Of a DNA stretch of 64,000 nucleotides, positions 32,322-48,715 are shown one piece after another; positions within the stretch are counted from its first letter, which is position 1; each line of letters begins with the position of its first letter. The notes beneath the pieces were generated by a model. The model did not search any database. It was not told where the DNA came from and saw nothing but the letters and a program-made list of their open reading frames with translations. Made by a program: the position numbers and the translations under genes. Source of the stretch: an uncultured Caldilineaceae bacterium (GTDB lineage: Bacteria > Chloroflexota > Anaerolineae > Caldilineales > Caldilineaceae); NCBI GenBank assembly GCA_964560495.1, contig CAZLMM010000024.1, positions 316 to 64,315 on the forward strand, written 5' to 3'.

Positions 32322-32358
32322 ATAGGATGTATTCAAAATCAGTTACAAGTGGTCATTC

Positions 32359-32431
32359 CGTAGGAGCTTGAACGGCGGCGAAGTCCTCATTCTGTAACAG
32401 CGAGGCTTTGCCGCCGCCCTTCAAGCCCGTA
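32359..32431. repeat. interspersed palindromic element, copy C (diverged)
   Basis: gtaggagcttgaacggcggcg ... tgccgccgcccttcaagcccgtac. Same arm sequences with a different loop. Confidence 0.7.
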
Positions 32432-32539
32432 CAGCAAACTAACTTTGAACACACCAATTTGAATAGATGCCCGCGGATCAATAGAGAATCTGCGCAGATC
32501 CGCCCGATCCTGTATCGGTCAAGATGATGGAAAAACGTC

Positions 32540-32560
32540 GGTGCGGTTACGAACCGCACC
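32540..32560 (+). other. 9-bp stem hairpin of the GTGCGRTT-NNN-AAYCGCAC-CTACG family
   Basis: ggtgcggtt acg aaccgcacc followed by tacgaatttc. Confidence 0.7.
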
Positions 32561-32630
32561 TACGAATTTCACGATGTTCTTGACCAGAACAAAATCCGCC
32601 CAATCCGCGTTATCTGCGTTTTTTTAGTTT

Positions 32631-34034
32631 GTGAAAGGAATGATCTTCATGACCGCGATTCACCCTGAACTCCAGGCTGCCTTCGACTGGATCGATGCGC
32701 ATCGCGCCGAGGCCATTGCCGACCTACAACGTCTGGTGCAGCAGAAGAGCGTCAGCGCACAGAACATTGGGTTGGAGGAGTGCGCCAGCCTGGTGGTTGA
32801 GATGATGCACGCGGATAGTCTTGACGCTGCGGCCTATCCACTGGATGGCGGCCCGCCCTGCATCATCGGCCACATGCCTAGCCGCTCCAACAGCAAGACG
32901 TTGCTTGCCTATGCCCACTATGACGTTCAGCCCGAAGACCCGGTGGACAAGTGGAGTTACCCACCCTATGGCGGCGTGATCGACAAGGGGCGGCTTTGGG
33001 GGCGCGGCGCAACGGACAACAAATCGGGCGTGTTGGCCTTCACCAAAGGCGCAAAAGCCTGGCTGCAGACGCGGGGCAGTCTGCCGGTCGGCGTCAAGTT
33101 CATCATCGAGGGCGAAGAGGAGATTGGTTCGATTCACCTCGGCCCTTTCATCGCAGCCAACCCGGAACTGGTACGCGCTGACGCCATGCACTGTCTGGAC
33201 GGCGGCGTCGATCCCAGTTCCATGGTTCCAGATATCGATCTCGGCCTGAAGAGTGTGCTCTTCGTGGAACTGGTGGCGCACGGCGCCAACGCCGACATTC
33301 ACAGCCTCAACGCGCCGCTGTTGCCGTCGCCTGCGTGGGATCTGGTGCGAGCGCTCAACAGCCTGATGGACGCCAACCGACGCATCTTGATCGACGGCTG
33401 GTATGAGGGGCTGTGGCAGTTGGGCGACGAGGAGATGGAGCAATTGGCGGCCAACGCGGCGCGGCTGGACCTGAACAAGCTCAAGGCGGAGTGGGGCATC
33501 GACCAGTTCGCCCTGGGCCGCGATGGGGTGGATGCCCTGCGGGCGCGCGCCTACGAGCCGACCTGTAACATCGCCGGGCTAACCGCTGGCTACCAGGGGC
33601 CGGGCAGCAAGACCATCGTTCCCAATGAGGCGCGCGCCAAACTGGACATGCGCCTGCCGCCGCTGATCGACCCGGTCAAGGCCATTGAAAAGCTCAAGCG
33701 CCATCTTGAAAAACACGGTTTTGGGCGCATCGAGGTGGTCATCCGCGGCGGGACGCCCGAGCCGCCCTACAAGATCAGCGTCAAGGAGGAGATCAGCCAA
33801 GCCATCATCCGCGCCGCCGAGCTGGTCTTCGGCGCGCCGCCGGTCATCAACGGCGTCAGCGCCGAAGGGACGATCCTCAAGCATGTGTGGATGCCGACGG
33901 TGCTCACCGGCTTTGCCCAGCCGGACTGTAATCTGCATGCGCCCGACGAGAGCATCGACCTGGAGCATTTCATCAAGGGAGTGAAGTACGCCGCCGCCAT
34001 CATGTGGGAGTATGGGCGCGAGGTCTCGAAATGA
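32631..34034 (+). CDS. M20 family dipeptidase/deacylase
   Basis: Motifs 'YAHYDVQP', 'GRGATDNKSG' and 'EGEEEIGS'. Start is ambiguous: GTG 32631, ATG 32640 or ATG 32649. Confidence 0.85.
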   Translation: MKGMIFMTAIHPELQAAFDWIDAHRAEAIADLQRLVQQKSVSAQNIGLEECASLVVEMMHADSLDAAAYPLDGGPPCIIGHMPSRSNSKTLLAYAHYDVQPEDPVDKWSYPPYGGVIDKGRLWGRGATDNKSGVLAFTKGAKAWLQTRGSLPVGVKFIIEGEEEIGSIHLGPFIAANPELVRADAMHCLDGGVDPSSMVPDIDLGLKSVLFVELVAHGANADIHSLNAPLLPSPAWDLVRALNSLMDANRRILIDGWYEGLWQLGDEEMEQLAANAARLDLNKLKAEWGIDQFALGRDGVDALRARAYEPTCNIAGLTAGYQGPGSKTIVPNEARAKLDMRLPPLIDPVKAIEKLKRHLEKHGFGRIEVVIRGGTPEPPYKISVKEEISQAIIRAAELVFGAPPVINGVSAEGTILKHVWMPTVLTGFAQPDCNLHAPDESIDLEHFIKGVKYAAAIMWEYGREVSK

Positions 34035-34129: not shown

Positions 34130-35512
34130 TCACGAACGCAGTGGTTGAATGAAACGCCCGCTGCCCGGTTCGGCCACGATCTGGCCAGCGTCGAACACCA
34201 CTTGTCCGTTGACAAGGGTTGTGCGCACAACGCCGCGCTGGCTGCGACCGTGATAGAGGCGAGCGATCTCTTTGGCCTTGGTGAACCAACGATTGGCGTC
34301 GATGACGCCGTGTGGCCGCGGGTCATAGATCGTCAGATCGGCGATAGCGCCCACCCGCAGCACGCCCCTCTCTGGGAAAAGGCCAAAGAGCTGCGCCGGC
34401 TGTGTGGAGAGCAAGCGCACTGCCATATCGAGGGAGAATCGTTCTGTCAATGCTTCGGTCATCACGCTGGGCAGGAGCGCCTCTACGCCCGGCGCGCCGA
34501 TGGCGCCCTGCCAGATGTCAGCGACGCCTCGTTCCTTTTCGGCAAGGGTGAAGGGGCTGTGGTCGGTGGTGATGGCGCGTAGCGACCCATCCATCAGACC
34601 GGCCCACAGGGCTGCCTGGTCGGTCTCGCTGCGCAGCGGCGGCTTGATCATGGCAAAAGGTCCCAGGCGATCCATGTCCGGCGCTGTGAAGTATAGATAG
34701 TGTGGGCAGGTTTCACCGGTCATGGGCAGCCCAGCGGCTTGCGCTCCTTGTAGAGTCTGAAGCGCAGCCGCGCAGGAGACATGGGCAATATGCACGTGAG
34801 TCCTGACTGCCGTACACATGACCGCCAACTGGGCCACGCTCATTGCCTCCACCACCGGGGGGCGGCTGGCAACAAAGGCCGCGGGATCAGTGCGCCCCGT
34901 TGCTTTGATGCGCCCCTCGAAGAGTTGGATCAGCCGCTCGTTTTCGGCATGACATGAAAGCAGCCGACCGGTCTCTTTGACCAGTTCCAACGCACGGTAA
35001 ATCTCGTCCTCTTGGTCAAGGCAAAGCCCTAAGAATTCGTCTTCGCGCCCTTTTTGGATGGCATGGGTGAAAATCTTGAAACCGCACGCCCCGGCGTCGG
35101 CCATGCCCAACACTTCGTCCCGGTCCAACAGACCCGGCGCGCCATAGAGACCGAAGTTGACATAGCTTTCCTTGCGTCCCAATGCCTTACGCATCTCGAA
35201 GACGTCGACGCGCGCACAGCAGGGCACGCTGATGGGCATTTCCAACACGGTGGTGACGCCGCCGGCCGCGGCCGCCTGGGTTTCGGTAATGAAGGTGCCG
35301 CGCTCGGGGTGGCCGGGCGCGCGCACATGGAAGTGAATGTCTATGACACCCGGCATGACCAGACAGCCTTCTGCGTTTAGCTCGCGACGGGCTGCGGGCA
35401 ATGCGCCGGGCTGTGCGATCACGGCGATGCGATCTCCCTCGACGCCCAGGTCAGCCGGGAGCTGACCCTGTTCCGTGATCAATACGCCGCCTTCGATGGC
35501 CAGATCTAGCAT
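34130..35512 (-). CDS. cyclic amidohydrolase (dihydroorotase/allantoinase/hydantoinase family)
   Basis: ORF 34130..35662 trimmed to ATG 35512 ('MLDLAIEGG'). HxH metal motif 'DIHFHV'; about 460 aa. Confidence 0.8.
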   Translation of the reverse strand: MLDLAIEGGVLITEQGQLPADLGVEGDRIAVIAQPGALPAARRELNAEGCLVMPGVIDIHFHVRAPGHPERGTFITETQAAAAGGVTTVLEMPISVPCCARVDVFEMRKALGRKESYVNFGLYGAPGLLDRDEVLGMADAGACGFKIFTHAIQKGREDEFLGLCLDQEDEIYRALELVKETGRLLSCHAENERLIQLFEGRIKATGRTDPAAFVASRPPVVEAMSVAQLAVMCTAVRTHVHIAHVSCAAALQTLQGAQAAGLPMTGETCPHYLYFTAPDMDRLGPFAMIKPPLRSETDQAALWAGLMDGSLRAITTDHSPFTLAEKERGVADIWQGAIGAPGVEALLPSVMTEALTERFSLDMAVRLLSTQPAQLFGLFPERGVLRVGAIADLTIYDPRPHGVIDANRWFTKAKEIARLYHGRSQRGVVRTTLVNGQVVFDAGQIVAEPGSGRFIQPLRS

Positions 35513-35525
35513 GAGTCGTAAACCC

Positions 35526-36689
35526 TCACAACAGCGCCTCCTCTGCAAAGCGCGCGAGGATGCACCGGGTCGTTTCCAGTTCTTCGATGACCACATATTC
35601 ATCCGCCGCGTGGGCGACCTCGTAGCTACCCGGGCCAAAGACCACCATTCCTTCCCTGGCAACGTTGGTCAGGTGCTTGGCGTCGCTGCCGGGCAGATAG
35701 CCGACAGGTTCAGGCGGCGCGCCGGTTTCGTCTGCGCAGAGGCGGACGAAACGCCGAAACAGCGCGCTTTCGACGTCGTTCTGAAACCAGTTGCTGATCA
35801 GGAAATCGCCCACGCGATAGGTGCGCTCCGGGTCAGCCGCCTGGCGCGCTGCGACGATCTCTTGCAGCTCCGCAATGACCGCTTGTGGGTCTTCGCCGGG
35901 CAGCATGCGCCGGTCCACGTAAATCGTGCACGCGTCGGCCACCACATTGACGCCCACCCCGCCGCTGATGACGCCCACATTGATGCTGGCCGGCCCAAGG
36001 AGTGGATGGGGGCGACGCTCCAGAACCTCAGACTGATAGCGTTCCAGGTCGAGAATCAGCCGCGCCATGCCATTGATGGCGTTGCGCCCGCGCCAGGGAT
36101 TGGTGGCGTGGGCGGTGCAACCTGCCACATGAAAGGCAGCGCGCAACACGCCCTTGTGCGCCGTCGCTGCCCGGTTGTGGGTCTGTTCGCCGACGACGAC
36201 AAAGTCGCACGCTGGGACGTAGCCGTTCTCCACCAGCCACTTCGTCCCCAACTGGCCGCCCACTTCTTCTTCTGCAGCGCAGACCACCACCAGGCGACCC
36301 TTGAGCCTGTCAGACTGCGCGCCGATTGCTGCGGCAGCGTGCAGCATGGCGGCTAGAGGCGCTTTGTCATCCACGCTGCCCAGGCCATAGACTTTCCCAT
36401 CGACCAAAGCGCCGGCAAAAGGATCGACGCTCCAGCGCGCATTCTGGCCCAGGGGCACGGTGTCGATGTGGGCGTGATAGAGCAGGGATAGCGAGTCTGC
36501 TTCACCCAACACACCGACGACGCTCCAGGCGCGATCATCGGGCGCAACCAGCGTGGTCGTAAAGCCGGCCCGCTGTAAGTAGTCGGCGCAGAACCCGGCA
36601 ATCGCGCGACAGTCGCCGGGCGGATTGGGAGAAGGGATACGGATCAGTTGCTGAAGCAACGCGACCAGTTCGTTGGCGGACAGGCTCAT
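35526..36689 (-). CDS. M20 family deacylase (ArgE/DapE/carbamoylase-like)
   Basis: ORF 35526..36953 trimmed to ATG 36689 ('MSLSANELVALL'), giving an ATGA overlap with the upstream gene. Motifs 'YHAHIDTVP', 'GLGSVDDKAP' and 'AAEEEVGG'. Confidence 0.8.
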   Translation of the reverse strand: MSLSANELVALLQQLIRIPSPNPPGDCRAIAGFCADYLQRAGFTTTLVAPDDRAWSVVGVLGEADSLSLLYHAHIDTVPLGQNARWSVDPFAGALVDGKVYGLGSVDDKAPLAAMLHAAAAIGAQSDRLKGRLVVVCAAEEEVGGQLGTKWLVENGYVPACDFVVVGEQTHNRAATAHKGVLRAAFHVAGCTAHATNPWRGRNAINGMARLILDLERYQSEVLERRPHPLLGPASINVGVISGGVGVNVVADACTIYVDRRMLPGEDPQAVIAELQEIVAARQAADPERTYRVGDFLISNWFQNDVESALFRRFVRLCADETGAPPEPVGYLPGSDAKHLTNVAREGMVVFGPGSYEVAHAADEYVVIEELETTRCILARFAEEALL

Positions 36690-37687
36690 GATGGGATCAG
36701 GTTGTCCACTGTTTGTTCGATGACGCCGAAGAAGCAGCACCACTGTCCCTCGATCACCGATGGTCGCGAGCGCAATCCAAAGACGACACCGTCGCGCGGG
36801 GCGGTCAATTCGGCCAACACATCGCCATAGAGATTGTAAATGACGCCCAGTGGCGTTCCCTGGGCGACAGGAGTCTCGAAGGGCAGGTCGCGATTGCCCA
36901 CAAAGATGCCCGTCGCCGGCGCCAAAAGCGCAATCTGATAGCCCTGCCGCCACGCCGGCGCATAGGCAGGCGTTCCTTCGATCATCTTATAGTGGCGCAT
37001 GACATTGAGGTAGCTGGCGGCCAGGTCCTCGGCCACAACATGGAAATCGCCTGTCAGCGAGCGGCAGTTGCCGCCCAGTTCCACTGTAATGCCGCCCTTG
37101 CCCAGAGACGCTATTATGGAGCTGGGGTTGCCGCCGCCCACTGGGGAACGAAAGACCAGGGACCACTGGGGCCCCATGGCCGCAGCCAATTCCAGGCTGA
37201 CCGGGTTGTCCGACGCAAAGATCATGTGCGCCAGGTAGGAATGTTCGCCGCCCGAATGGACAGCGATTTGCAGGTCGCAGTTCTCTTTCATAGCCAGCCA
37301 GTGAGCATAGGCGATGCGTTCGGTGGGATAGCCTTCGGCCTTGCCGGGATAGATGCGGTTCATATCATAGCTGAAGGTGTCCAGCGGGTCGCCGCGCGTG
37401 CCGGCCGTGAAAGCGTTCACGTTCATGGCGGGCACTGCCACGATTGTTCCGCGTAGGCGTTGCGGGTCGATCTGCTTGAGCGCCAGAAAGATCGAAAAAG
37501 CGCCTTCCGGCTCATCGCCGTGGGTGGCGCCGTTGATCCAGAGCCGCGGCCCTTCTTCCACCCCCCGTGCAACGATAATGGGCATGGCGTAGGGGCGCCC
37601 GGCCATATCAACGCCCGCCTGAATGACGCCCCGTTTCATCTCGCCCGGCATGACCGTCGTCACACCAATTGTCATTGCTTCTGTCAT
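36686..37687 (-). CDS. succinylglutamate desuccinylase/aspartoacylase family deacylase
   Basis: 333-aa ORF with zinc-site-like 'NGATHGDEPEG'. Family assignment is from recall. Confidence 0.75.
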   Translation of the reverse strand: MTEAMTIGVTTVMPGEMKRGVIQAGVDMAGRPYAMPIIVARGVEEGPRLWINGATHGDEPEGAFSIFLALKQIDPQRLRGTIVAVPAMNVNAFTAGTRGDPLDTFSYDMNRIYPGKAEGYPTERIAYAHWLAMKENCDLQIAVHSGGEHSYLAHMIFASDNPVSLELAAAMGPQWSLVFRSPVGGGNPSSIIASLGKGGITVELGGNCRSLTGDFHVVAEDLAASYLNVMRHYKMIEGTPAYAPAWRQGYQIALLAPATGIFVGNRDLPFETPVAQGTPLGVIYNLYGDVLAELTAPRDGVVFGLRSRPSVIEGQWCCFFGVIEQTVDNLIPS

Positions 37688-37696
37688 AGTTGCTCC

Positions 37697-38890
37697 CTAT
37701 CGATGTCGCGCCAGCACGCCAGCCATCCGTTCCAGCGCCAACGCCAGTTGATCCTCTGGCTGCAATACGCTGATGCGCAGCCAATCCACCCACTTTTCGC
37801 CAAAGGCGGTGCCCGGAAAGATGAGCACGTGCCCCTCTTTGAGAAGGAGATAAGCCAGCTCAAAGGCAGGAATGCCGCTGGAAGCAGCGTTGGTGTAGAC
37901 AAAGAATGCACCCTGCGGCTCGCCATAGGTGAAGCCCAGATCGGTCAGTCCGCTCTTCATCAGCGCAATGCGACGCCGGTAGATTTCCCGATACTCAGCC
38001 ACCACGTCCTGCGGACCGGTTGCCGCGGCCAGGGCTGCGTACTGGCTCACAGCCGACAGGGGGCCGGTCGTGGCAGCTTTCACCGCTGTCATTGCCGCAA
38101 TGAAGTCCGCCGGCGCGGCCGCATAGCCAACGCGCCAGCCGGTCATGGCGTAGGTCTTGGAAAAACCGCCCAACGTAACTGTGCGCTCAAACATCCCCGG
38201 CAAACTGGCGAAGCTCAATTGCTCGGCAGGGGGATAGATGTATTTCTCGTAGATTTCATCGCTGATGACGATCAAGTTATGGCGCTGTGCGATCTCGGCA
38301 ATTGCTCGCAGATTGGCCGGACTGACCACCGCCGAGGTGGGGTTGCTGGGCGAGATGAGCAGGATGGCCTTGGTCTTGGGCGTGATGGCCGCCTCCACCT
38401 CTGCGGGCCGCAAGTCGAAGTTGTCTTCCGGGTAGGTGGGCACAAGCGTCATCTTGGCCCCGGCCTGATGGATCGCCTCGTCGTAGCTCGTGTAGCGCGG
38501 GTCAGGCGCCAGGATTTCGTCGCCCGGGTCGAGAAGCGTCTGCATGAGCAGGTAGAGCGCCTCCTGCCCGCCATCGGTGATCAGAACATCGTCGCGTGTC
38601 AGCGGGATGTTGTTCTGGTCGTGCAGGTTGGCCGCCACTGCTTCGCGCAGAGCTGGCAGGCCAGCCGTAGGAACGGGCAGATCAGCCCGTCCATCCAGTA
38701 TGGCCGCGCGAGCTGCAGCAATGACATGTTCTGGCGTGTTGAGGTCTGGGTCGCCGCGGCCCAGAGTAATCGCGTCGGGAATTTGCCCCGCCAGTTCCAT
38801 GAGAGCATAGCGCAGTTTGACGCCGTCAGCGGCGACTGCGCGCAGTTCGTCTGGCGTCACAATCTGACCTGGTGCGACTTTCTGGCTCAT
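37697..38890 (-). CDS. class I/II pyridoxal-phosphate aminotransferase
   Basis: Motifs 'SPSNPT', 'SDEIYEK' and PLP-lysine 'GGFSKTYAMTGWRVGY'. Confidence 0.85.
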   Translation of the reverse strand: MSQKVAPGQIVTPDELRAVAADGVKLRYALMELAGQIPDAITLGRGDPDLNTPEHVIAAARAAILDGRADLPVPTAGLPALREAVAANLHDQNNIPLTRDDVLITDGGQEALYLLMQTLLDPGDEILAPDPRYTSYDEAIHQAGAKMTLVPTYPEDNFDLRPAEVEAAITPKTKAILLISPSNPTSAVVSPANLRAIAEIAQRHNLIVISDEIYEKYIYPPAEQLSFASLPGMFERTVTLGGFSKTYAMTGWRVGYAAAPADFIAAMTAVKAATTGPLSAVSQYAALAAATGPQDVVAEYREIYRRRIALMKSGLTDLGFTYGEPQGAFFVYTNAASSGIPAFELAYLLLKEGHVLIFPGTAFGEKWVDWLRISVLQPEDQLALALERMAGVLARHR

Positions 38891-38893
38891 TCA

Positions 38894-39982
38894 CTAACGT
38901 CCTTTCACCTGGCGCAGCCCAACCTCGAGCGCCTCCAGCGCATCGGCCAGCGAGCCGGAAGGCGCGGCAATGCGGAGCATGCCGGGCTGGCCGAGCAACG
39001 CGCCGTCGCCCACCAGGACGCCGGCAGAGCGGCACGCACCAGCCGCAGCGCTGCTGTCACCCACCTTGGCCGCAACGAAGGCCACCGTGTCCGGTTCCAG
39101 GTAAGCGATCTCAAGGCGGTCGAGGAGCGCAAGGATCGCTTCCATACGCTCGGCGTATTGGGCTTCGATCTCGCCTTCATCCACTTCGACGGCAGCCGCC
39201 AACGCCGCATACTGGCTGGCAGCCGCTGTGCAGATGGTGATGGATTGCTTGAGATCGCGCACCGGCGTAAAGACGCGCTTTGCGCCGGCGACCCAACTGA
39301 CGCGCCACGCCCCCAAGCCCGGCGCCTCGGCAAAGCTGCCGATAGTCAGTGTGCGCTCCGCCATCCCCGGCAGCGATGCAAACCGCACGAAGGGCGCCTC
39401 CGGCCGCACAGGGCCGACGCTCTCGTCTGCGATGACGGCAAGACCCGCGGCGGCAACCCACTCAGCCAGACGCTGCAAAAGCCCTGGCTGATAAACCTGA
39501 CCCGTTAGCGGGTGTGGATTGCTCACGATCAGCAGACCGCCGTGGATCTGCGGCAGTTCGCCCGCCAGATCGAGCACGTGTACGCGCGCGTTGGCGAACT
39601 CCAACCCGGCGCGATAGACCGTGGGCGCCGGCGCCGGCAGATAGACGTCCTGCCCAGCAGCCAGGCCGCGCACGGCTACATAACGCGCCTCGGCCACTCC
39701 GCCGCAGATGGTCGCCAGATTCTCGTCCATCGCCGCCCCAGCCGCAGTCAGGGATGACGCCACCGCACGGCAGAGCGGCGCGATGCCTGGGCGTCGCGTG
39801 TAATGGTCGCACAGGTGGCGTTCGATGGCGTCGATGGTTGACTCGCGCAGCGCGGGCGAGGTGCTGCTGGCAAGAAACTCTTCGCTCAGGTCGATCACAT
39901 CATCGTGCACCGGCGGTGGGACAGGCAGACTACGAGCGCGCTGCGCCGCCATGCCGCCGAGAATGGAAGAACCCATGGTCAT
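38894..39982 (-). CDS. aminotransferase-fold paralogue lacking the PLP-binding lysine (predicted non-catalytic or repurposed)
   Basis: 362-aa ORF collinear with class-I aminotransferases ('SNPHPLTG', 'ADESVG', 'GAWRVSW'). The position of the S-x-S-K lysine reads 'GSFAEAPGLGAWRV', with Glu codon gag at 39326..39328. Confidence 0.7.
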   Translation of the reverse strand: MTMGSSILGGMAAQRARSLPVPPPVHDDVIDLSEEFLASSTSPALRESTIDAIERHLCDHYTRRPGIAPLCRAVASSLTAAGAAMDENLATICGGVAEARYVAVRGLAAGQDVYLPAPAPTVYRAGLEFANARVHVLDLAGELPQIHGGLLIVSNPHPLTGQVYQPGLLQRLAEWVAAAGLAVIADESVGPVRPEAPFVRFASLPGMAERTLTIGSFAEAPGLGAWRVSWVAGAKRVFTPVRDLKQSITICTAAASQYAALAAAVEVDEGEIEAQYAERMEAILALLDRLEIAYLEPDTVAFVAAKVGDSSAAAGACRSAGVLVGDGALLGQPGMLRIAAPSGSLADALEALEVGLRQVKGR

Positions 39983-40437
39983 ACGCCCTGCGGTCGGTCG
40001 CCGCTTTCGCCTTCCTTGTAGACCTGCATGAACTCGATCTCGATACCGCTGACTTCATCCTGCAAGAAGGCCACCCAACCTTCGGGGTGGACGTGGCTGC
40101 CCGTCACCTTGCAGGCGGAGCACTCTTTGAGCGTGGCGCCATTTGCCTGAGCTTCCGTCAGCGCGGCGTCAATATCTTCCACTGCAAAGCAAATGTGGTG
40201 CAGTCCCTCATGGCCGCGCTGGGCGATCCATGAGGCGAAGCGGCCATCTGCATCCATGGATTGCGTCACCTGAAATTCCACGCCGCCCAGGTCGAAGACT
40301 GCGGCGCGATTGCGACTCTTGTTGAAGTCCTTGACCTGGACGCTTTCCGGCGCGCCCAATAGCCGCTTATAGGCGGCCAACGACGCATCCACGTCGCGCA
40401 CAGCAAAAGTCATGTGTTTGATCTGGGTTACTTTCAT
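39979..40437 (-). CDS. VOC/glyoxalase-fold protein (methylmalonyl-CoA epimerase-like)
   Basis: 152-aa ORF with 'HMTFAVRDVD' and 'GLHHICFAVEDID', the paired beta-alpha-beta-beta-beta module signatures. 4-nt overlaps with both neighbouring genes. Confidence 0.7.
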   Translation of the reverse strand: MKVTQIKHMTFAVRDVDASLAAYKRLLGAPESVQVKDFNKSRNRAAVFDLGGVEFQVTQSMDADGRFASWIAQRGHEGLHHICFAVEDIDAALTEAQANGATLKECSACKVTGSHVHPEGWVAFLQDEVSGIEIEFMQVYKEGESGDRPQGV

Positions 40438-41258
40438 GTGACCATCCTTCTGCTCATTTCATCTACGTAAAGCGTCACTTTATGGGGCGCAAACTCGAAA
40501 TCGTACCCTTCCGCAGCGATCGTATCTGCCACTGGGCCGGCGTCGAAGCGCAGACCCGAAAAGCGGCTGGGCGGCTGCAACGCCAGCCAGACGAAGGCCG
40601 ACGCCAACGTGAGCGGATCGGTCCAGCGGGCGCGCTCTGCGTCGCTCAACCCGTTCTCGTCGGCCCGGCGGATGGACGTGGGCTTGATGGGCTTACCCGG
40701 CCCCATGGTGTTGACGGCGATGTTGTGCGCTGCCGCTTCCAGCGCCAGCGCCTTGGTGAAGCCTTCGACGCCATGTTTGGCTGCACAATACGAGACTTCA
40801 TTGACAAAGCCGCGCATGCTGGATCCGCTGGCGATGGCCACGCAATGGCCGCCGCCTTGACGCACCATGTGCGGCCATGCGGCCCACACTCCGTGATAGA
40901 CGCCTGTCAGGTTGACAGCGATCATCTTGCTCCAGAAATCCGGCGTGTGTTGGGCGAAGGGGACGAGCGGCATGATCGCTGCATTGTTGACCACCATGTC
41001 CAGCCGTCCCCATTGGGCTGTGATGGCGGCCGCAGCGTTTTGCATCGCCTGAGCGTCGCTCACGTCGACGACCAGGCTCAGGACTGGGCCGCCGTCGCTG
41101 CGAATTTCGTCCCCGGTCAAAGCCAGCTCGTGCGCGTCGATATCCGTGATGCAGACGCGCGCTCCGGCGCGGGCCAGCCCGCGAGCGATGCCTGCGCCAA
41201 AGCCCCGTCCCGCTCCGGTGACCCACACCACTCGATTTTCCAGCAGGTTCGTCGCCAT
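40434..41258 (-). CDS. SDR family oxidoreductase
   Basis: TGxxxGxG motif 'VTGAGRGFGAGIA', 'NNAA', and catalytic YxxxK in 'YCAAK'. Confidence 0.85.
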   Translation of the reverse strand: MATNLLENRVVWVTGAGRGFGAGIARGLARAGARVCITDIDAHELALTGDEIRSDGGPVLSLVVDVSDAQAMQNAAAAITAQWGRLDMVVNNAAIMPLVPFAQHTPDFWSKMIAVNLTGVYHGVWAAWPHMVRQGGGHCVAIASGSSMRGFVNEVSYCAAKHGVEGFTKALALEAAAHNIAVNTMGPGKPIKPTSIRRADENGLSDAERARWTDPLTLASAFVWLALQPPSRFSGLRFDAGPVADTIAAEGYDFEFAPHKVTLYVDEMSRRMVT

Positions 41259-41275
41259 AGAGAGGGCCGAGAGAG

Positions 41276-41315
41276 ACAGGATGAACAGGACCTAGGGGCA
41301 TCCTGTTCATCCTGT
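41276..41315 (-). other. intercistronic hairpin built from CAGGAT units (15-bp perfect stem)
   Basis: acaggatgaacagga (41276..41290) pairs with tcctgttcatcctgt (41301..41315), with a 10-nt loop. Confidence 0.8.
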
Positions 41316-41324
41316 TAAGGCTTC

Positions 41325-42197
41325 CTAATTCACCTGTAGCAGTTCTTTGATGTTTGCGCCGGCTGTCATCACTGGTTGAATCACCGGCGCCTTGCTCGTC
41401 ATGAGCACGGCGATGCCCGGCCCATAGCCGCTGCGGAAACTGCCGCCTTGACAGACCACGCCGATCGCCATCGCGCCCGCCAGAAAACCGTGGCCATAAC
41501 GACTATCCCAATCAGCCACGGCCACGAGGTCGCCAAAGCGCAGGTCGGCCAAACCGGCCGCGGCGAAGCGCTCTGGGTCGGATGTTTGCAAATTGAGCGC
41601 GCCATTCTCGCTGCCCAAACCGGCCCCTGCCCCCGCCAATACACTCGGCGCGACGCCCCGCACCGGTACAACCAGCTTGCCGTCGCCGCTCACATCCGGG
41701 TTGAGCGCATCCAGCAACGCAGGCGAACAGCTCTTGAACTGGATATCGGGAAACTCAGCGAGCTGTAAACCCACGCCGTGGGCCTGCACCTGCACCTTGT
41801 CGCCCGGCGCCATCTTTTCCAGCGCCGCATCTTCGAAGTGGCAGATGACGTGCTCGGCAAAGCGTCCGCTCTTGCCGATGACAACGCCGATTGCGCCGCT
41901 TGCTGCGCCGCTGACCACCCGCGCTCTATTGCCCAGGCAGGCAAAGACGCTCAAGGCTGCGTTGGCCGGGCCGCTGGTTTTGATGGAGACCCCCGGCTGG
42001 ATCAGCTCCGCCGCCCAACCCAGCGCATGGTCGCCCAGTTTTACATTGTAGACCAGTCCGCCATAGGCCGGCACGACCAGCGGCTCGCCGTCAGCCGACA
42101 CCAGATAGGGACTGGCGGGTAGACCCGGCATGGATGGATTGGCGATCTCACCCAGAACGGAGATTTTTACAAGTTGTGATACGTTTGTTGTCAGCAT
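41325..42197 (-). CDS. uncharacterised protein, DUF4438-like (paralogue 1)
   Basis: 290-aa ORF collinear with the adjacent 286-aa ORF. Shared blocks: 'TN..QLVK', 'VYN..(L/V)G..A.GWA', 'PGVSI', 'GDLVAV.D.D.R.G.GF' and 'GANI'. The DUF4438 name is from memory of that family's length and N-terminus, not from a search. Confidence 0.65.
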   Translation of the reverse strand: MLTTNVSQLVKISVLGEIANPSMPGLPASPYLVSADGEPLVVPAYGGLVYNVKLGDHALGWAAELIQPGVSIKTSGPANAALSVFACLGNRARVVSGAASGAIGVVIGKSGRFAEHVICHFEDAALEKMAPGDKVQVQAHGVGLQLAEFPDIQFKSCSPALLDALNPDVSGDGKLVVPVRGVAPSVLAGAGAGLGSENGALNLQTSDPERFAAAGLADLRFGDLVAVADWDSRYGHGFLAGAMAIGVVCQGGSFRSGYGPGIAVLMTSKAPVIQPVMTAGANIKELLQVN

Positions 42198-42305
42198 GAT
42201 TGGCTCTCGAACATATTCATTTGGGTTTTGAGGTCTTGGGGAGACGGGTTTGGGAATTGCCTATTCCCAAAAACCTCATTGCCTCAAGACACCACTGCCC
42301 GGTGC

Positions 42306-43166
42306 TTACACCATCCCCAACATCCTGGCGATATTGGCCCCTGGGTCAATTACCGGTTCAATCTCGCCGTTGGCGCAGACGAGCATGTCCTGACAACCGG
42401 GGCCATGACCTGTCATGACCGAGTCGCCGTGCATGATCAAGCCGATGGTCACGCCCCCGGGCTTGAAGCCGCGGCCAAAGCGGTGGTCGGTATCCATGAC
42501 AGCCACCAGATCGCCCAACTTCAGGTTGTCGATGCCGTGCTCAGCCAGCGCCGCCCGGTCGCCGGTCATCAAGTCCTGATCGACAAACTCCGGCGTCAAC
42601 TCGGCGCCGCTGCCCATAATGTGGGCTGGGATGGTCGCCACAACCGGGACTTGCAGCCTGCCCGCCGCCGATCTGCCCAATCCCCACGCCTCGATCAGGT
42701 TGGGGCCGGCCTTCTTGACCAACACGCCTGGAAAGTCGAGCAGTTTCATGCCGCGCCCTTCAGTTTTGATCACGATGCGGTCGCCGACGCAGAGCTGTTC
42801 CAGTACATCAGGCGCAAAATCCACCAACAATCGGGCATGTTCTCCGGTGACGACGCCGCGTGCGCCTATGGCAGGCCCGCTGGCGACGAAGGCTTCGTTG
42901 CCAACGCAAGTCAGGTAGTGCATTGCGTGATCCACTGCGTCGTCAGGATGGGCGATAGAGACGCCCGGCTCCACGTGGTCGCCCGCCCAGCCATACGCGG
43001 GAGCGCCGACGCGGGCGTTGTAGACGATCCCTGCCATGCCAATGAGCACCCGTCCGACGCCTTCGGTGTCTGGGCGATAAGGCGAGCGATCCAGCGTCGG
43101 CGCGCTGATGAAACCGGAGACCGCCATTTTCACAAGTTGGTCACGATTCGTCCGCAACATGGGCAT
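42306..43166 (-). CDS. uncharacterised protein, DUF4438-like (paralogue 2)
   Basis: 286-aa ORF, full-length paralogue of 41325..42197. See that entry for the shared blocks. Confidence 0.65.
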   Translation of the reverse strand: MPMLRTNRDQLVKMAVSGFISAPTLDRSPYRPDTEGVGRVLIGMAGIVYNARVGAPAYGWAGDHVEPGVSIAHPDDAVDHAMHYLTCVGNEAFVASGPAIGARGVVTGEHARLLVDFAPDVLEQLCVGDRIVIKTEGRGMKLLDFPGVLVKKAGPNLIEAWGLGRSAAGRLQVPVVATIPAHIMGSGAELTPEFVDQDLMTGDRAALAEHGIDNLKLGDLVAVMDTDHRFGRGFKPGGVTIGLIMHGDSVMTGHGPGCQDMLVCANGEIEPVIDPGANIARMLGMV

Positions 43167-43193
43167 CCTTTTACTTATCGCGTAGTCAAATTT

Positions 43194-44210
43194 TCATATC
43201 ACCCGGTGGGCCAGCGAACCATTCTCTGCAAAGCGCCGGACATTGGCCAGAACATCGCTCATCTGCCGATCCCGTGCGCCGCCCGTGCCGCCGCCAATGT
43301 GGGGCGTCAGAATCACGTTGTCGCACTGCAAAAGTGGATGATCGAAGGGGATCGGCTCGTAGAGAAAGACATCCAGCCCGGCGCCGGCAATCTGACGGCG
43401 TTGCAGCGCGGTCACGAGCGCGTCTTCTTCGATGACGCCGCCGCGGCAAATGTTGACCAGGAAGGCGCTGGGCTTCATCAGCGCCAGCTCGCGCGCTCCG
43501 ATCATCTTCTCGGTCTCTGGCGTCAACGGCGTGGCAAGCAGCACGAAGTCCGACGCCCGCAGGAGATCGTCTTTTTCGGCAAAGACAACGCCTTCCGCTG
43601 TCTCTGCCGTGGAAGGCAGCCTCGTGCGCTTGTTGTAAAGGACCGACATGCCAAAGGCGCGCGCTCGCCGCGCCGTCTCTGCTCCGATCTCGCCGAAGCC
43701 GATGACGCCCAGAGTGCGCCCCACCACTTCGAGCATTTGCGATTGCATGTTCATCCACTGAAACTTGTGCTTGCGCTGTTCAGTGCGGATCGGCTCGACG
43801 CCCAGACTGCGGTACGCGCCAGTCACGGTGGCTACGTGACCGCGTATCAGGTTCTTGCTCAGGGCCAGGATCAAGGTCATGGCCAGCTCGGCCACGGCGA
43901 TGCAGCCGTGGAGCGGCATCGTTGCGACAGCCACGCCGCGGGCGCGCGCAGCGTCAAGATCGACGCCGTCGGGTCGTGCGCCGTAGCGCTGGATCAGCTT
44001 GAGGCGAGGCGAAGCGGCGATCAGTTCAGCATTGATGGCTGTGCTCTGCGTCACGATGGCGTCGGCTTTAGGAAGCAGATGGGCCATTGCTGCGGGCGAG
44101 TCGTCGGCTGGCGCAATCAGACCCAGTGATTGCGCTGGTTGCAGTTTGGTAATCCACTCGAAGTCGGTTGGCGTTTTGGGCTCGGCAAATAGGACGGTGA
44201 AGGTTTCCAT
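43194..44210 (-). CDS. D-isomer-specific 2-hydroxyacid dehydrogenase
   Basis: NAD motif 'GVIGFGEIG', plus 'NICRGGVIEEDAL', 'GAGLDVF' and 'ILTPHIGG'. Confidence 0.85.
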   Translation of the reverse strand: METFTVLFAEPKTPTDFEWITKLQPAQSLGLIAPADDSPAAMAHLLPKADAIVTQSTAINAELIAASPRLKLIQRYGARPDGVDLDAARARGVAVATMPLHGCIAVAELAMTLILALSKNLIRGHVATVTGAYRSLGVEPIRTEQRKHKFQWMNMQSQMLEVVGRTLGVIGFGEIGAETARRARAFGMSVLYNKRTRLPSTAETAEGVVFAEKDDLLRASDFVLLATPLTPETEKMIGARELALMKPSAFLVNICRGGVIEEDALVTALQRRQIAGAGLDVFLYEPIPFDHPLLQCDNVILTPHIGGGTGGARDRQMSDVLANVRRFAENGSLAHRVI

Positions 44211-44215
44211 ATGAC

Positions 44216-44917
44216 CTATACAATCTGGGCAGAGCTTTCCTGCCCGTCTTCTGGCGACCAGTTGGCCAACAGGTGATGAAGCGACTCGGCGATGTGGTCG
44301 CTGAGGATCTGCTTGGCCTGCGTCTTGTCACGCGCCTTGAGCGCCGTAATCAAGGTGGGATGGCTGCCCACGACCTCATCGAGAAATGTGTAAATCTTGT
44401 GGCGGGTGCGCAGACAGCGCCGTAGCCCGACTTCCAGGTTGAGCCACAATTTGAGCGCCAGCTCATGATTCGCCTGTTCGAGCAGATATTCATGAAAACG
44501 AAGGTCGATCTCGACCAAACGCGTAAGATCGCCGCTGCGCGCAGCTTGGCGCATCTCCTCCACGATTTCATCGAGATAGTCGATGTCGGCGTCAGACATG
44601 CGCTCGATGCTGTGGTCGAGAGCCAGGAGCTCGAGCGCCGTGCGCACCGAATATAGCTCCTCCACATACTTGCGGGTCAGCGGCGTGACGATGACGCCTT
44701 TGTAGGGCACGCTCTGGAGCAGTCCCTCTTGTTCCAACTGACCCAGCGCTTCACGGATTGGTCCACGGCTCACCCCAAGTTGTTCGGCGATCTGCGCCTG
44801 ATTGAACTCTGCGCCGGGCGCCAGAGCGCCGTCGATGATCAGCTGGCGGAGCACGCCGGTGACATTTTCCTTGAGCGTGCGCGGCTCAATTCGCTGCAAG
44901 TTCTCCAGATACGTCAC
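44216..44917 (-). CDS. GntR family transcriptional regulator, FadR/FCD subfamily
   Basis: N-terminal wHTH 'QIAEQLGVSRGPIREALGQLEQEGLL' and a helical FCD-like C-terminal domain. First gene of the minus-strand operon. Confidence 0.85.
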   Translation of the reverse strand: MTYLENLQRIEPRTLKENVTGVLRQLIIDGALAPGAEFNQAQIAEQLGVSRGPIREALGQLEQEGLLQSVPYKGVIVTPLTRKYVEELYSVRTALELLALDHSIERMSDADIDYLDEIVEEMRQAARSGDLTRLVEIDLRFHEYLLEQANHELALKLWLNLEVGLRRCLRTRHKIYTFLDEVVGSHPTLITALKARDKTQAKQILSDHIAESLHHLLANWSPEDGQESSAQIV

Positions 44918-44976
44918 TGTTCCTCACCCTCTGCGCCTCATCGCACATTTTTTGGGAAGTTGCTTGCAAATCATGA

Positions 44977-45005
44977 TTGACAACGGATGCGACTCATGAT
45001 ACACT
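44977..45005 (+). promoter_or_regulatory. sigma-70-like promoter for the island-2 transporter operon
   Basis: TTGACA (44977..44982), a 17-nt spacer, then TACACT (45000..45005) with an extended -10 TG at 44997..44998. Confidence 0.5.
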
Positions 45006-45015
45006 CCAAAATTAG

Positions 45016-45039
45016 ATTTGTCAACTGTCAACAGTTGAC
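45016..45039. promoter_or_regulatory. operator-like palindrome, copy 2 (candidate GntR site)
   Basis: atttgtcaactgtcaacagttg (45016..45037) is identical to 29109..29130. It contains 8-bp inverted arms gtcaactg/cagttgac around tcaa and starts 10 nt after the -10 element. Confidence 0.6.
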
Positions 45040-45184
45040 GGTATGATTGCTACATGTTCGCTACAGTCTTCTAACAGCGCCGTCTGTATCGTTCCTTGTG
45101 AACGACGCATGTCTCCCATGTGTTGTCCGCTTCGTTCGTTTTCATTCGTTTGTCGGCACGTTCGATTCAAAGGGGGGCACCATC

Positions 45185-46777
45185 ATGAAGTACAAGATAT
45201 CCTGGATATTGGTCGTCTTGATCGTTGGATTGGTCATTGCGGGCTGCGTTCAGCCCGCGCCAGGCGCAAGCGCGCCGGCGGCGGAGGCCGAGACCAGCGC
45301 AGAGGAAGCCGGGGCCACTGGAGGAGGCGTTTTGACCGTAGCGCGGTCGGCTGACGCCAATCTGTGGGATCCAAAGTTTACGAATGACAATAATTCCCTG
45401 TGGGCGCAGACTCAGATATTCGCCACATTGATGCAGAATTCCCCAGATGGCAAAGAGTTGCTCCCCTGGCTGGCGGAATCCTATGAGTTCAACGATGACG
45501 CCACCGAAGTGACCTTCAAGCTGCACGCGGACGCCAAGTTCTGCGACGGCAGCCCGATCACCGCCGAGGATGTGAAATGGTCGTTGGATCGCGGCAAGGA
45601 AGCAGACTCCGCCGTCTCCTGGCAATTCTTCTCCAACCCAGAAATCGAGGTCATCGACGATCTGACGGTCAAGTTCACCCTGGATCGCCCGAATGTGGCT
45701 TTCCCCCACTATCTGACCCTGTGGGGCATGTCGATCCTTTCCAAGAAATACGCCGAAGAAGTGGGCATCGAAGCCCTTGCCGAGAAGCCGCTGGGCTCTG
45801 GTCCCTTCTGCCTGGATCAATGGGACAAAGGGCAGTTGATCGTGCTCAAACCCAACCCCGGCTATTGGGGGGATGATGGCTCGAAGGTGGATGAGGTGCA
45901 CTTGCGCGTGGTACAAGATGACAATGCCCGCGTTCTCCAGGTGCAGACCGGTGAGGTCGATATCGCCCTGGACATCCCCTATGCACAGGTGGAGGCGCTG
46001 CGTGGGGCGGAGGGCGTCGAGGTGATGGTTGATACGCTTTACGGTACGGCAGCAATCCCGCTCAATCAGCGCACGGTGCCCCAATTTGCCGACAAGAAGA
46101 TTCGCCAGGCTATGGCCCACGTCATCGACCGTCAGGCGCTTGTGGACGCCGTGTTGTTGGGGCAAGGCGAGGTAGCCAAGTCACCCTTCTACGGGCCGGC
46201 GATCCTCTACTGGACAGGTGACTTCGAGATACCTTTCGACCTGGAAAAGGCCAAACAGCTCATGGCCGAATCGAGCGATCCCGATGGCTTCTCCGCCGAG
46301 TTGCTCATTCCCTCCGGCGACACGATGGCGCAGCAGACCGCTGTCATCCTCAAGGATCAGCTGGCGCAGATCGGCATCGACATCACCATCACGCCGGTCG
46401 AGTCTGGCACATGGTGGGAGATGTGGTCTGGCGGCACCTATCAGATGCTCTACAAACTGGGCACCAACGACGTGATTGACCCGGCGGAGAATCTCCCCTT
46501 CGACTTCTGGTCCATCGAGGAGGGCGGCTCGGATGCAGCCTTCACCGGCTTCTATAACGCCCGCATCGTGGAGCTGAGCCAGATGGCCGAGCGCGAGTTC
46601 GACTCGGCCAAGCGCGCCGAGCTCTACTACGAACTGCAGCAGATCGCCATGGACGAGACGCCGCAATTGTGGCTCTTCCATCCCTCCAACCGCTGGGCGA
46701 CGCGCGACAATATCGAAGGTTTCTCGGTTTTCCCCACCGGCTTGCACCGCTTCTGGTTGGCGTCGAAGGCGCAGTGA
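45185..46777 (+). CDS. ABC transporter substrate-binding protein, family 5, lipoprotein
   Basis: ORF 45047..46777 trimmed to ATG 45185 ('MKYKISWILVVLIVGLVIAGC', lipobox-like 'IAGC'). About 530 aa, DppA/OppA-like. Confidence 0.85.
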   Translation: MKYKISWILVVLIVGLVIAGCVQPAPGASAPAAEAETSAEEAGATGGGVLTVARSADANLWDPKFTNDNNSLWAQTQIFATLMQNSPDGKELLPWLAESYEFNDDATEVTFKLHADAKFCDGSPITAEDVKWSLDRGKEADSAVSWQFFSNPEIEVIDDLTVKFTLDRPNVAFPHYLTLWGMSILSKKYAEEVGIEALAEKPLGSGPFCLDQWDKGQLIVLKPNPGYWGDDGSKVDEVHLRVVQDDNARVLQVQTGEVDIALDIPYAQVEALRGAEGVEVMVDTLYGTAAIPLNQRTVPQFADKKIRQAMAHVIDRQALVDAVLLGQGEVAKSPFYGPAILYWTGDFEIPFDLEKAKQLMAESSDPDGFSAELLIPSGDTMAQQTAVILKDQLAQIGIDITITPVESGTWWEMWSGGTYQMLYKLGTNDVIDPAENLPFDFWSIEEGGSDAAFTGFYNARIVELSQMAEREFDSAKRAELYYELQQIAMDETPQLWLFHPSNRWATRDNIEGFSVFPTGLHRFWLASKAQ

Positions 46778-46811
46778 CGACGGAGTAACGGCTGTGTGAG
46801 GCAGTGAGGTA

Positions 46812-46858
46812 GTAAGGGAATGAGGTGATGGGGGTCGCCCATCACCTCATTCCCTTAC
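46812..46858 (+). other. intercistronic stem-loop (21-bp perfect stem) between SBP and permease genes
   Basis: gtaagggaatgaggtgatggg (46812..46832) pairs with cccatcacctcattcccttac (46838..46858), with a 5-nt loop. Confidence 0.8.
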
Positions 46859-48712: not shown

Positions 48713-48715
48713 CCG

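Follow-up and report, generated by a model that had tools for sequence, protein, structure and literature searches.

In divergons controlled by FadR-subfamily (FCD) GntR regulators, a winged-helix GntR protein with an FCD domain heads its own operon and faces a palindromic operator in the divergent region, and catabolic loci of this kind are known. Two described systems come close in enzyme content to the locus we report here: the Hyu clusters, in which a hydantoinase-type binuclear amidohydrolase adjoins an M20 hydrolase, and the ectoine-degrading DoeABCD system, under a GntR-superfamily regulator, in which a ring is hydrolysed and an AstE/AspA-type zinc enzyme removes the N-acyl group before transamination and dehydrogenation. 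Orphan clusters of catabolic genes are frequently encountered. One protein family, DUF4438, has had crystal structures since 2008 (TM1086) and is an 18-year-old structural-genomics orphan; we know of no DUF4438 member with a known function. Here, we analyze a 64,000-nucleotide stretch (the window; G+C ~62%) of contig CAZLMM010000024.1 from an uncultured Caldilineaceae bacterium, and specifically an 11-gene operon on its minus strand (34130-44917) with two DUF4438 genes near its center. With high confidence, this operon forms the core of a larger regulon, which spans 23.9-62.5 kb and counts ~33 genes. The locus appears to work like Hyu- and Doe-type systems, through ring opening, deacylation and transamination, but lacks defining features of Hyu, allantoin, Doe and peptidoglycan-recycling systems.

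The 11 genes are co-directional, based on the listing of open reading frames (ORFs) and on Pfam and NCBIfam scans. The first encodes the GntR/FCD regulator (44216-44917; PF00392 1.4e-15, PF07729 4.5e-24) and the second a D-isomer-specific 2-hydroxyacid dehydrogenase (HADH; 43194-44210; PF02826 and PF00389). These are followed by DUF4438-A (42306-43160, first called as 42306-43166) and DUF4438-B (41325-42197), each with PF14505 and PF20999, an SDR (40434-41258; PF00106), and a VOC-fold protein of the Glyoxalase_4 family (39979-40437; PF13669). Next come a lysine-less aminotransferase paralogue (ATx; 38894-39982), which matches PF00155 only weakly (1e-18), a canonical class I aminotransferase (AT; 37697-38890; PF00155, 5e-71), an AstE/AspA-type zinc deacylase (AstE; 36686-37687; PF24827), an M20 deacylase of the ArgE/DapE clade (M20a; 35526-36689; TIGR01910), and a cyclic amidohydrolase of the hydantoinase/allantoinase/dihydroorotase type (AMH; 34130-35512; PF01979). 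Gene calls made independently by JGI on contig 3300037501 Ga0394875_0000467 (99-100% amino acid identity) give the same 11 genes, with another start codon for DUF4438-A, and the domains match exactly the gene list of a preliminary description of this DNA.

In gene order, the junctions measure 5, 27, 108, 66, -4, -4, 3, 9, -4, and 13 nucleotides (nt), such that seven of the ten are 13 nt or shorter (three ATGA overlaps, of which that at 40434-40437 was read directly in the sequence, and four gaps of 3-13 nt). This count was part of the preliminary description and stands, as do the 66- and 108-nt gaps, but the gap given there as 27 nt is more likely 33 nt. Specifically, DUF4438-A most likely starts at the second ATG (43160), because its homologues begin with MLRTN and a Shine-Dalgarno-like AAAGGA lies 5 nt before that codon. 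Inside the operon, the coding strand carries no promoter-like site, and terminator-like sites occur at chance level; a search against Rfam finds no riboswitch or other RNA family in the window.

A scan of one genome per species identified 80 DUF4438 loci, most of them in Chloroflexota (Caldilineaceae, Anaerolineae, Thermomicrobiales, and Phototrophicaceae) with a few in Trueperaceae and Bacillota; the closest relatives among them are metagenome-assembled genomes of Caldilineaceae. Loci of at least 18 kb were searched by tblastn with the proteins of the window, and divided into 16 close loci, with a DUF4438-A at least 70% identical, and 31 distant ones (50-70% identity). We rely on these tblastn counts rather than on counts of ORF clusters, because clusters u21, c32, c33, and c35 proved to be antisense artefacts of a greedy ORF caller in high-GC DNA. 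DUF4438-B is present in 16/16 close and 30/31 distant loci, AT in 14/16 and 25/31, GntR in 11/16 and 24/31, AMH in 10/16 and 24/31, VOC in 12/16 and 22/31, and M20a in 10/16 and 15/31. The corresponding values are 10/16 and 9/31 for ATx, 16/16 and 7/31 for SDR, 12/16 and 6/31 for AstE, and 12/16 and 5/31 for HADH. Overall, the gene set is co-conserved around the DUF4438 A/B pair in ~47 Chloroflexota and Trueperaceae loci, and the gene order is kept in no fewer than 10 other genomes, at 60-90% amino acid identity. In the six most remote loci (Bacillota and others), a single DUF4438 gene is all that is shared. The preliminary description had allowed that the genes might turn out not to be co-conserved; by tblastn counts and gene maps, they strongly are. 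DUF4438 clusters like those of Chloroflexota are also found on two contigs binned to a cyanobacterium (L027, labelled Pleurocapsa sp.) and an alphaproteobacterium (L071, labelled Rhodobacteraceae), through either horizontal transfer or mis-binning.

In the canonical Anaerolineae arrangement, one strand carries a GFO gene, U55 (a conserved protein described below), two permeases, a binding protein, a second GFO gene, an epimerase, and GntR, while the other carries DUF4438-A, DUF4438-B, VOC, Ldh_2, ATx, AT, in some cases AstE, then M20a, AMH, M14, and M24. The window has a member of every family in this cluster, distributed between 23.9 and 62.5 kb. As such, the 11-gene set of the preliminary description is real and co-conserved, but only the core of a larger regulon.

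The promoter region also points to such a regulon. The divergent region between the GntR operon and an ATP-binding cassette (ABC) importer array (44918-45184) contains two plus-strand promoter-like sites, and its best promoter-like site is TTGACA-17-TATCAT (11/12) on the minus strand at 45024-44996, reading into GntR. The window contains two copies of the 21-nt sequence TTTGTCAACTGTCAACAGTTG, and no more (0 expected), at 45017-45037 and at 29110-29130, and both sit in divergent promoter regions, 16 kb apart; the second, operator-like copy lies between a second binding-protein gene and an M14 peptidase gene. Within it is the palindrome GTCAACAGTTGAC, which reads GT(C/T)AAC-N-GTTGAC. The same palindrome is found just upstream of the GntR orthologue in ten other loci (L005, L006, L007, L008, L010, L014, L016, L017, L020, and L021), at a distance of ~100-125 nt in most of them, and upstream of the binding-protein gene in L012. 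In distant Anaerolineae-type clusters, a related palindrome, TGTCGAttgTCGACA or ATTGTCGACAAT, is located between GntR and DUF4438-A and shares the half-site TTGTC(A/G)AC with the motif of the window. The motif is thus a candidate operator for GntR, which is presumably a repressor of all units. We disregarded a weak match to the motif at 14058, which falls within a MacB-type gene. The arrangement is that of a FadR-type divergon, with a GntR/FCD protein heading its own operon and a palindromic candidate operator in the divergent region, but differs from those described in that the effector and the operator are both undescribed, and in that the same motif recurs in a second divergon 16 kb away.

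The 66-nt gap between DUF4438-B and SDR (41259-41324, minus strand) holds a stem-loop with an uninterrupted 16-bp stem (-29.8 kcal/mol, z = -5.6, 0/200 shuffles as stable) and no U-tract. A related hairpin is present at 60338-60408 on the plus strand (-32.9 kcal/mol, z about -5.6), with a partial copy near 61498-61521. The two full hairpins are near-perfect, are built from ACAGGATG repeats, and both occupy intergenic gaps of the regulon; they may be repetitive extragenic palindromic (REP)-like elements or may process or stabilize mRNA.

Outside of the operon, the regulon comprises units on both strands. To one side, a second SBP_bac_5 binding protein, two permeases, and an Ldh_2 dehydrogenase are encoded on the minus strand (23908-28833; Pfam and JGI gene calls). 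The Ldh_2 gene itself (23908-25002) shares 70-72% identity with its counterparts in DUF4438 clusters, and archaeal malate dehydrogenase (1v9n) and L-sulfolactate dehydrogenase (2x06) are nearest to it among solved structures, at 215 and 205 bits, compared with 136 bits for AllD. On the plus strand, 29164-34034 encodes an M14A carboxypeptidase, an M24 peptidase, and an M20 dipeptidase-like protein (tblastn and Pfam). The M14 gene shows 49-70% identity to M14 genes from DUF4438 clusters (tblastn) and has carboxypeptidases A4 and T as PDB matches; a putative conserved gene on the opposite strand ("Unk29," 29083-30687) was rejected, as it is really an antisense ORF of this M14 gene.

Beyond the divergent region, a plus-strand array of 15 genes (45185-62513) begins with a Dpp/Opp-type ABC importer made of an SBP_bac_5 protein, two permeases, and two ATPases (45185-50808; Pfam and JGI). 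The closest solved structure to this importer's binding protein is AapF (7kz8, 247 bits), and the solved homologues of both binding proteins in the regulon (AapF, GsiB, AgaA, and DppA) give no clue to a substrate. The array continues with an isochorismatase-like hydrolase, a third aminotransferase, an M20 dipeptidase-like protein, and an M24 peptidase (50853-55320; Pfam, NCBIfam, and JGI), then U55 (55333-56745), and finally a second 2-Hacid_dh-like protein, a second amidohydrolase, a fourth aminotransferase, a GFO/IDH/MocA oxidoreductase, and an NAD-dependent epimerase/dehydratase (56756-62513; JGI and Pfam). Orthologues of the second amidohydrolase, the oxidoreductase, and the epimerase adjoin DUF4438 clusters in other genomes. 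The largest gap in the array (57704-57923, 220 nt), which follows the second 2-Hacid_dh-like gene and precedes that of the second amidohydrolase, may hold an internal promoter.

U55 has no Pfam or NCBIfam family above threshold, and yet has 650 homologues, of which the best 120 homologue clusters are 69-90% identical and include members from Chloroflexota, Trueperaceae, and Acidimicrobiia. It is linked to the DUF4438 pair in 19 loci (3/16 close and 16/31 distant). Its structure model (predicted local distance difference test, 84) is a glycoside-hydrolase-like TIM barrel, with Foldseek matches to Cwp19 (5oq2, 6e-10), the C-terminal domain of PgaB (1e-8), and GH42 (1kwg, 2e-8). An invariant WCNERR motif is followed by CFCEHC, and we take these to resemble the acid/base residue and zinc site of GH42. 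U55 is therefore predicted from its model to be a glycosidase-like TIM barrel of an unclassified family.

At the center of the operon, the two DUF4438 proteins both carry the two domains found in TM1086. For PF14505 and PF20999, with gathering cut-offs of 24.9 and 27, the scores are 144 and 144 bits in DUF4438-A, and 152.7 and 118.9 bits in DUF4438-B. DUF4438-A matches PDB entries 3dcl/3n99 (TM1086) at 221 bits, and its structure model superposes on 3dcl (TM-score 0.87, Foldseek E = 8e-31), with no other PDB fold below E = 0.1; Foldseek matches to ribosomal and viral beta-barrels had E above 0.2 and were dismissed as noise. NCBIfam has no model for DUF4438, and searching the literature by family names and accessions returned no paper on the family, only unrelated uses of the same strings (e.g. 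TM1086 as a C. elegans strain name or in a crystallisation list, and PF14505 for a different family). The statement in the preliminary description that the two central genes lack a known function thus still stands, TM1086 being their only match. The family is also small, with 881 representatives at 50% identity among 1.84 billion proteins.

The 2 paralogues are 38-39% identical and differ at positions that are otherwise well conserved. Specifically, the alignment shows that H64, E66, H110, S186, D196, D198, R232, H246, and H254 are common to A-type and single-copy homologues, TM1086 included. In B-type proteins, the polar residues of the A-type and single-copy proteins are replaced, and S110, A186, and H232 are each 97% conserved among them. 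DUF4438-B adjoins DUF4438-A in 46 of 47 loci, and in one member of the representative library (P0241, 636 amino acids), a B-like half and an A-like half are naturally fused. Given this partitioning of residues and the fusion, we infer that DUF4438-A and -B form a heteromer, in which A would be catalytic through a His/Asp/Glu site that probably binds metal, and B a re-specialised partner. The N-terminus of P0241 resembles a signal peptide, which hints that some DUF4438 members may act outside the cytoplasm and need no nucleotide cofactor. TM1086 itself differs in being single copy and in a non-catabolic context, while here an A/B duplicate is embedded in a probably catabolic operon.

A second pair in the operon shows a similar division. 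Where AT reads GFSKTYAMTGWR, ATx reads SFAEAPGLGAWR, and the Schiff-base lysine of the SK(T/S)xxMTGxR motif, present in AT and in all 38 canonical sequences aligned, is replaced by E. Among 23 ATx orthologues from other loci, this position is A/D/T/G/N/E/W/P/V/R/S or a gap, and never K, which extends the lysine-less aminotransferase of the preliminary description to a conserved trait. According to the gene maps, ATx is directly upstream of the K-bearing aminotransferase wherever both genes are called. AT is closest to solved aspartate/aromatic aminotransferases of subgroup Ib (1dju and 1gd9, ~269 bits), below every NCBIfam cut-off. By sequence, ATx has the fold of an aminotransferase but, lacking the Schiff-base lysine, is not active in the way that these enzymes usually are. 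Because class I aminotransferases are obligatorily dimeric, AT and ATx may form a heterodimer with one functional site. Heteromeric pyridoxal phosphate enzymes with a lysine-less subunit exist, as in the LCB1/LCB2 pair of eukaryotic serine palmitoyltransferase, where a fold-type I paralogue without the Schiff-base lysine is likewise encoded alongside an intact partner; the trait is conserved across species here. By contrast with LCB1/LCB2, both partners here are class I aminotransferase-like, they are found in a bacterial operon, and their physical association is a prediction. We found no relevant paper on lysine-less aminotransferase heterodimers.

No enzyme of the operon reaches an NCBIfam equivalog cut-off; only M20a passes a threshold, that of a broad ArgE/DapE subfamily model (TIGR01910, 223.5 bits vs 217.6). 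HADH has phosphoglycerate dehydrogenase and glyoxylate reductase as best matches (~205 bits vs cut-offs of ~455), and SDR has generic matches only. For VOC, the best match is metmalonyl_epim (61.8 bits vs a 115-bit cut-off), and H8, Q56, H80/H81, and E133 are at least 95% conserved among 32 orthologues, which we take to be the ligand pattern of methylmalonyl-CoA epimerases. The same 32 VOC orthologues also conserve C106-x2-C109-x5-H115-x-H117 (at least 95%), which suggests an additional metal site (residues 106-117) that would be atypical for small VOC proteins.

AstE matches DoeB best in NCBIfam (81.5 bits vs 402.7), and its closest solved structures are DoeB (6twl, 65 bits, among the top two) and unnamed AstE/AspA proteins; H56, E59, and H144 are at least 95% conserved. 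For AMH, scores are 318 bits against allantoinase TIGR03178 (cut-off 357.85), 304.6 against PRK06189 (cut-off 631), and 274.8 against D-hydantoinase TIGR02033 (cut-off 393.25), with L-hydantoinase 1gkr as the closest solved structure (243 bits). It thus belongs to the family without reaching equivalog level, and all of its metal ligands are present, with H60, H62, K146, H188, H244, and D317 at least 95% conserved among 34 orthologues. The conserved residues of AMH, AstE, and VOC are, we presume, those of the catalytic sets of their families.

M20a has only DapE, ArgE, and acetylcitrulline deacetylase as PDB matches, and its sequence places it in the ArgE/DapE clade and not in the carbamoylase clade. 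Together with a DoeB-like AstE, this makes it more likely that an N-acetyl or N-succinyl group is removed than a carbamoyl group. It also bears on the analogy to hydantoinase/N-carbamoylase pairs drawn in the preliminary description. A hydantoinase-like amidohydrolase does adjoin an M20 gene, but because M20a belongs to the ArgE/DapE clade, the analogy is weaker than one to the ectoine-like order of ring opening followed by N-deacylation. The ATP-dependent hydantoinase/oxoprolinase genes HyuA/HyuB, which are unrelated to AMH, stand beside the DUF4438 pair in L013, L060, and L065, and no AMH orthologue was detected by tblastn in L060 or L065. For this reason, opening of a cyclic amide ring seems integral to the pathway.

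These data lead us to propose the following route. Two Dpp-type ABC importers would import an amino-acid or peptide conjugate, N-blocked or cyclised and perhaps glycosylated, from which the M14, M24, and M20 peptidases, U55, the GFO/IDH/MocA oxidoreductase, and the NAD-dependent epimerase would strip ordinary residues and any sugar. The hydantoinase-like AMH would then open the cyclic amide, M20a and the AstE-type deacylase would free the alpha-amino group, and the AT/ATx heterodimer would convert the amino acid to a 2-oxo acid. This product would be processed by the DUF4438 A/B heteromer, VOC, and SDR, with VOC acting by enolisation or epimerisation, while the D-specific 2-Hacid_dh and the L-specific Ldh_2 would link 2-oxo and 2-hydroxy acids. 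GntR would repress all units at the GTCAAC-N-GTTGAC candidate operators until a carboxylate intermediate binds its FCD domain. A sugar moiety is suggested by the glycosidase-like fold modelled for U55 and by the GFO and epimerase genes; a peptide by the M14A carboxypeptidase, the M24 and M20 peptidases, and the two Dpp-type importers; and 2-oxo-acid chemistry by AT, Ldh_2, 2-Hacid_dh, and VOC.

That the 11 genes form a single GntR/FCD-controlled catabolic operon, at the core of a conserved Chloroflexota regulon and working along these lines, is evenly balanced in our judgement, while the order of the steps and the class of substrate are tentative. What the sequences show directly is the gene content, the intact catalytic residues, the co-conservation, and the conserved operator-like motif common to two promoter regions; the direction of flux, the two heteromers, and each substrate are proposals. 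Catabolism of an N-acylated, ureido, or cyclic amino-acid derivative was already the reading of the preliminary description; it gains support here, and the presence of HyuA/HyuB beside the DUF4438 pair strengthens the chemistry. The preliminary description also knew of no characterised pathway of this composition, which agrees with the lack of equivalog-level matches and with a literature keyword search for the enzyme combination that returned nothing relevant.

Several points weigh against this proposal. No substrate is named by the evidence, no enzyme reaches equivalog level, and the indications differ in part in the chemistry they suggest (cyclic amide, N-acyl, sugar, peptide, and 2-oxo acid). 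Linkage of SDR, HADH, AstE, and ATx is less widespread than that of the core genes. The operon is interrupted after DUF4438-B by the strong hairpin of the 66-nt gap, such that transcription as one uniform unit is not assured. Sequence data also do not distinguish catabolic flow from salvage or interconversion. Lastly, the single-copy DUF4438 genes of Thermotoga and Clostridia reside in non-catabolic contexts of an envelope or housekeeping type, and the DUF4438 reaction need not, therefore, be tied to the pathway. In Thermotoga, MetRS is followed divergently by DUF4438 (TM1086), rhomboid, and TrkA/TrkH; in Zhenhengia, the gene is beside S11 and an Rce1-like gene; and in Caloranaerobacter, beside M23 and MurJ. 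Single-copy genes adjoin either envelope genes, as in these cases, or amide hydrolases, as in metagenome-assembled genomes of Bacillota, where the neighbors are S58 (a DmpA-type aminopeptidase) and Asparaginase_II.

We also considered whether a described type of pathway could account for the locus. Hydantoin or ureide utilisation, of the Hyu or allantoin/purine type, would have AMH open a 5-substituted hydantoin, allantoin, or a dihydropyrimidine, the M20 enzyme decarbamoylate the product, and the aminotransferase and dehydrogenases dispose of the amino acid or glyoxylate. The proximity of AMH to allantoinase (318 vs 357.85 bits) and to L-hydantoinase 1gkr fits this, as do HyuA/HyuB in some orthologous clusters, the membership of Ldh_2 and 2-Hacid_dh in the ureidoglycolate dehydrogenase and glyoxylate reductase families, the weak BiuH/RutB similarity of the downstream isochorismatase, and a PucR-type regulator near a Clostridial DUF4438 gene. 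We nonetheless consider it unlikely. M20a is of the ArgE/DapE type, with no carbamoylase, allantoate amidohydrolase, or beta-alanine synthase among its PDB matches, and AMH is below the hydantoinase and allantoinase cut-offs. In addition, Pfam reveals no hydantoin racemase (Asp/Glu racemase fold), cupin-type ureidoglycine hydrolase, or NCS1 permease domain among the genes at 23.9-62.5 kb, Ldh_2 is nearer to malate and sulfolactate dehydrogenases than to AllD, and the peptidases, Dpp-type importers, glycosidase-like protein, and AstE deacylase are left unexplained. Degradation of an ectoine-like compatible solute (a cyclic amidine or lactam) would proceed by Doe logic through a ring hydrolase, an N-acetyl-diamino-acid deacetylase, a transaminase, and a dehydrogenase. 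The order of ring opening, deacylation, and transamination fits, M20a is an N-acyl deacylase by type, DoeB leads the NCBIfam matches of AstE and is among its top PDB matches, and the M24 proteins are weakly similar to DoeA. These scores are, however, far below cut-offs (81.5 bits vs 402.7 for DoeB; 26.4 and 41.4 bits vs 613 for DoeA), the aminotransferase is of another class, and DoeC is missing, with no class III diaminobutyrate transaminase or aspartate-semialdehyde dehydrogenase present. The locus also has DUF4438, VOC, SDR, and peptidase genes in excess of the Doe set and a Dpp-type importer, while known ectoine importers are of the tripartite ATP-independent periplasmic (TRAP) or SBP_bac_3 ABC type, all of which makes this explanation very unlikely.

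The salvage or catabolism of peptidoglycan fragments or D-amino-acid peptides would instead begin with MppA-like import, followed by deglycosylation by a Cwp19-like U55 and the sugar oxidoreductases and cleavage by M14, AstE, M20, and M24, with DUF4438, VOC, and the aminotransferase pair handling D-Glu, diaminopimelate or ornithine, and D-Ala. The best structural match of U55 is indeed the peptidoglycan hydrolase Cwp19, then PgaB, and the locus has M14, M14-like deacylases, and DapE-like M20 enzymes. Ornithine-type peptidoglycan is typical of the taxa that carry the cluster, Chloroflexota and Trueperaceae, and single-copy DUF4438 genes neighbor a Peptidase_S11 DD-carboxypeptidase, an S58 DmpA-type aminopeptidase, an alanine racemase, an M23 peptidase, and MurJ, but each of these contexts comes from one locus or a few. 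The region has no homologues of AmpD, NagZ, MurQ, LdcA, or YcjG, and no Amidase_2, GH3, SIS, or S66 domain by Pfam; the match to MpaA is negligible (17.7 bits vs a cut-off of 157), and the hydantoinase-like or HyuAB ring opening would have no obvious substrate. We therefore regard this origin as quite unlikely. Supply of a non-proteinogenic amino acid to an adjacent nonribosomal peptide synthetase (NRPS) is highly improbable. Aminotransferase, dehydrogenase, and epimerase sets are common in such biosynthetic cassettes, and a three-gene NRPS converges on the plus-strand array from 62435, but its genes lie ~17 kb from the operon and are absent from all 82 other DUF4438 loci, indicating that the NRPS is probably unrelated; moreover, two importers, a GntR/FCD regulator, and at least eight hydrolases are typical of catabolism. 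A chance juxtaposition, or several independent transcription units without a common pathway, is equally improbable: the 33-, 66-, and 108-nt gaps and the hairpin could separate units, and SDR, HADH, and AstE are linked less widely, but synteny is kept across dozens of species, three junctions are ATGA overlaps, no promoter-like site is found on the internal coding strand and terminator-like sites there are at chance level, and two promoter regions have the operator-like motif in common.

In the most far-reaching reading, DUF4438 would be a new enzyme family that here forms an A/B heteromer, with A supplying a His/Asp/Glu metal site. It would act at the committed step of an unrecognised route, widespread in Chloroflexota, that degrades an environmentally common amino-acid conjugate, cyclised or N-acylated and perhaps glycosylated, together with an AT/ATx heterodimer and the new glycosidase-like U55 family; none of these has a characterised isofunctional counterpart. 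We see this as possible but doubtful. The control by a FadR-type GntR divergon is of a known kind; the enzyme complement, with a putative DUF4438 heteromer, a pseudo-aminotransferase, and an unclassified glycosidase-like protein, is undescribed, and as orphan catabolic clusters go, this one is unusually well conserved. It provides DUF4438 with its first strong conserved functional context, in the form of enzymatic neighbors, a candidate regulator with a candidate operator, and two candidate binding proteins. From their sequences, the AT/ATx and DUF4438 A/B pairs also appear to be clean natural examples of pseudo-subunit evolution within one operon. Activated sludge, soils, mats, and sponges all harbor abundant Caldilineaceae and Anaerolineae, whose heterotrophic substrates are poorly known; the conservation of a 20-33-gene regulon implies that its substrate is important in those habitats.

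Other features of the window lie outside of the regulon. The NRPS cluster is encoded on the minus strand from 62435 to 64000 and runs beyond the window (L085, 13271-21173), with proteins of 631 (A-T), 1108 (C-A-T), and 1397 amino acids (C-A-T-TE), where A, T, C, and TE are adenylation, thiolation, condensation, and thioesterase domains; it converges on the end of the plus-strand array. Long antisense ORFs of 534-682 amino acids opposite real genes, at 37460-39508 (plus strand), 42228-44129 (plus strand), and 29083-30687 (minus strand), are artefacts of high GC. Genes at 6011-23693 seem unrelated to the regulon, and encode an alpha-2-macroglobulin-like protein of 2046 amino acids, a MacB-type ABC exporter, an aminotransferase and a zinc-type alcohol dehydrogenase, a transaldolase, a FadJ-like fusion protein, and a thiolase.

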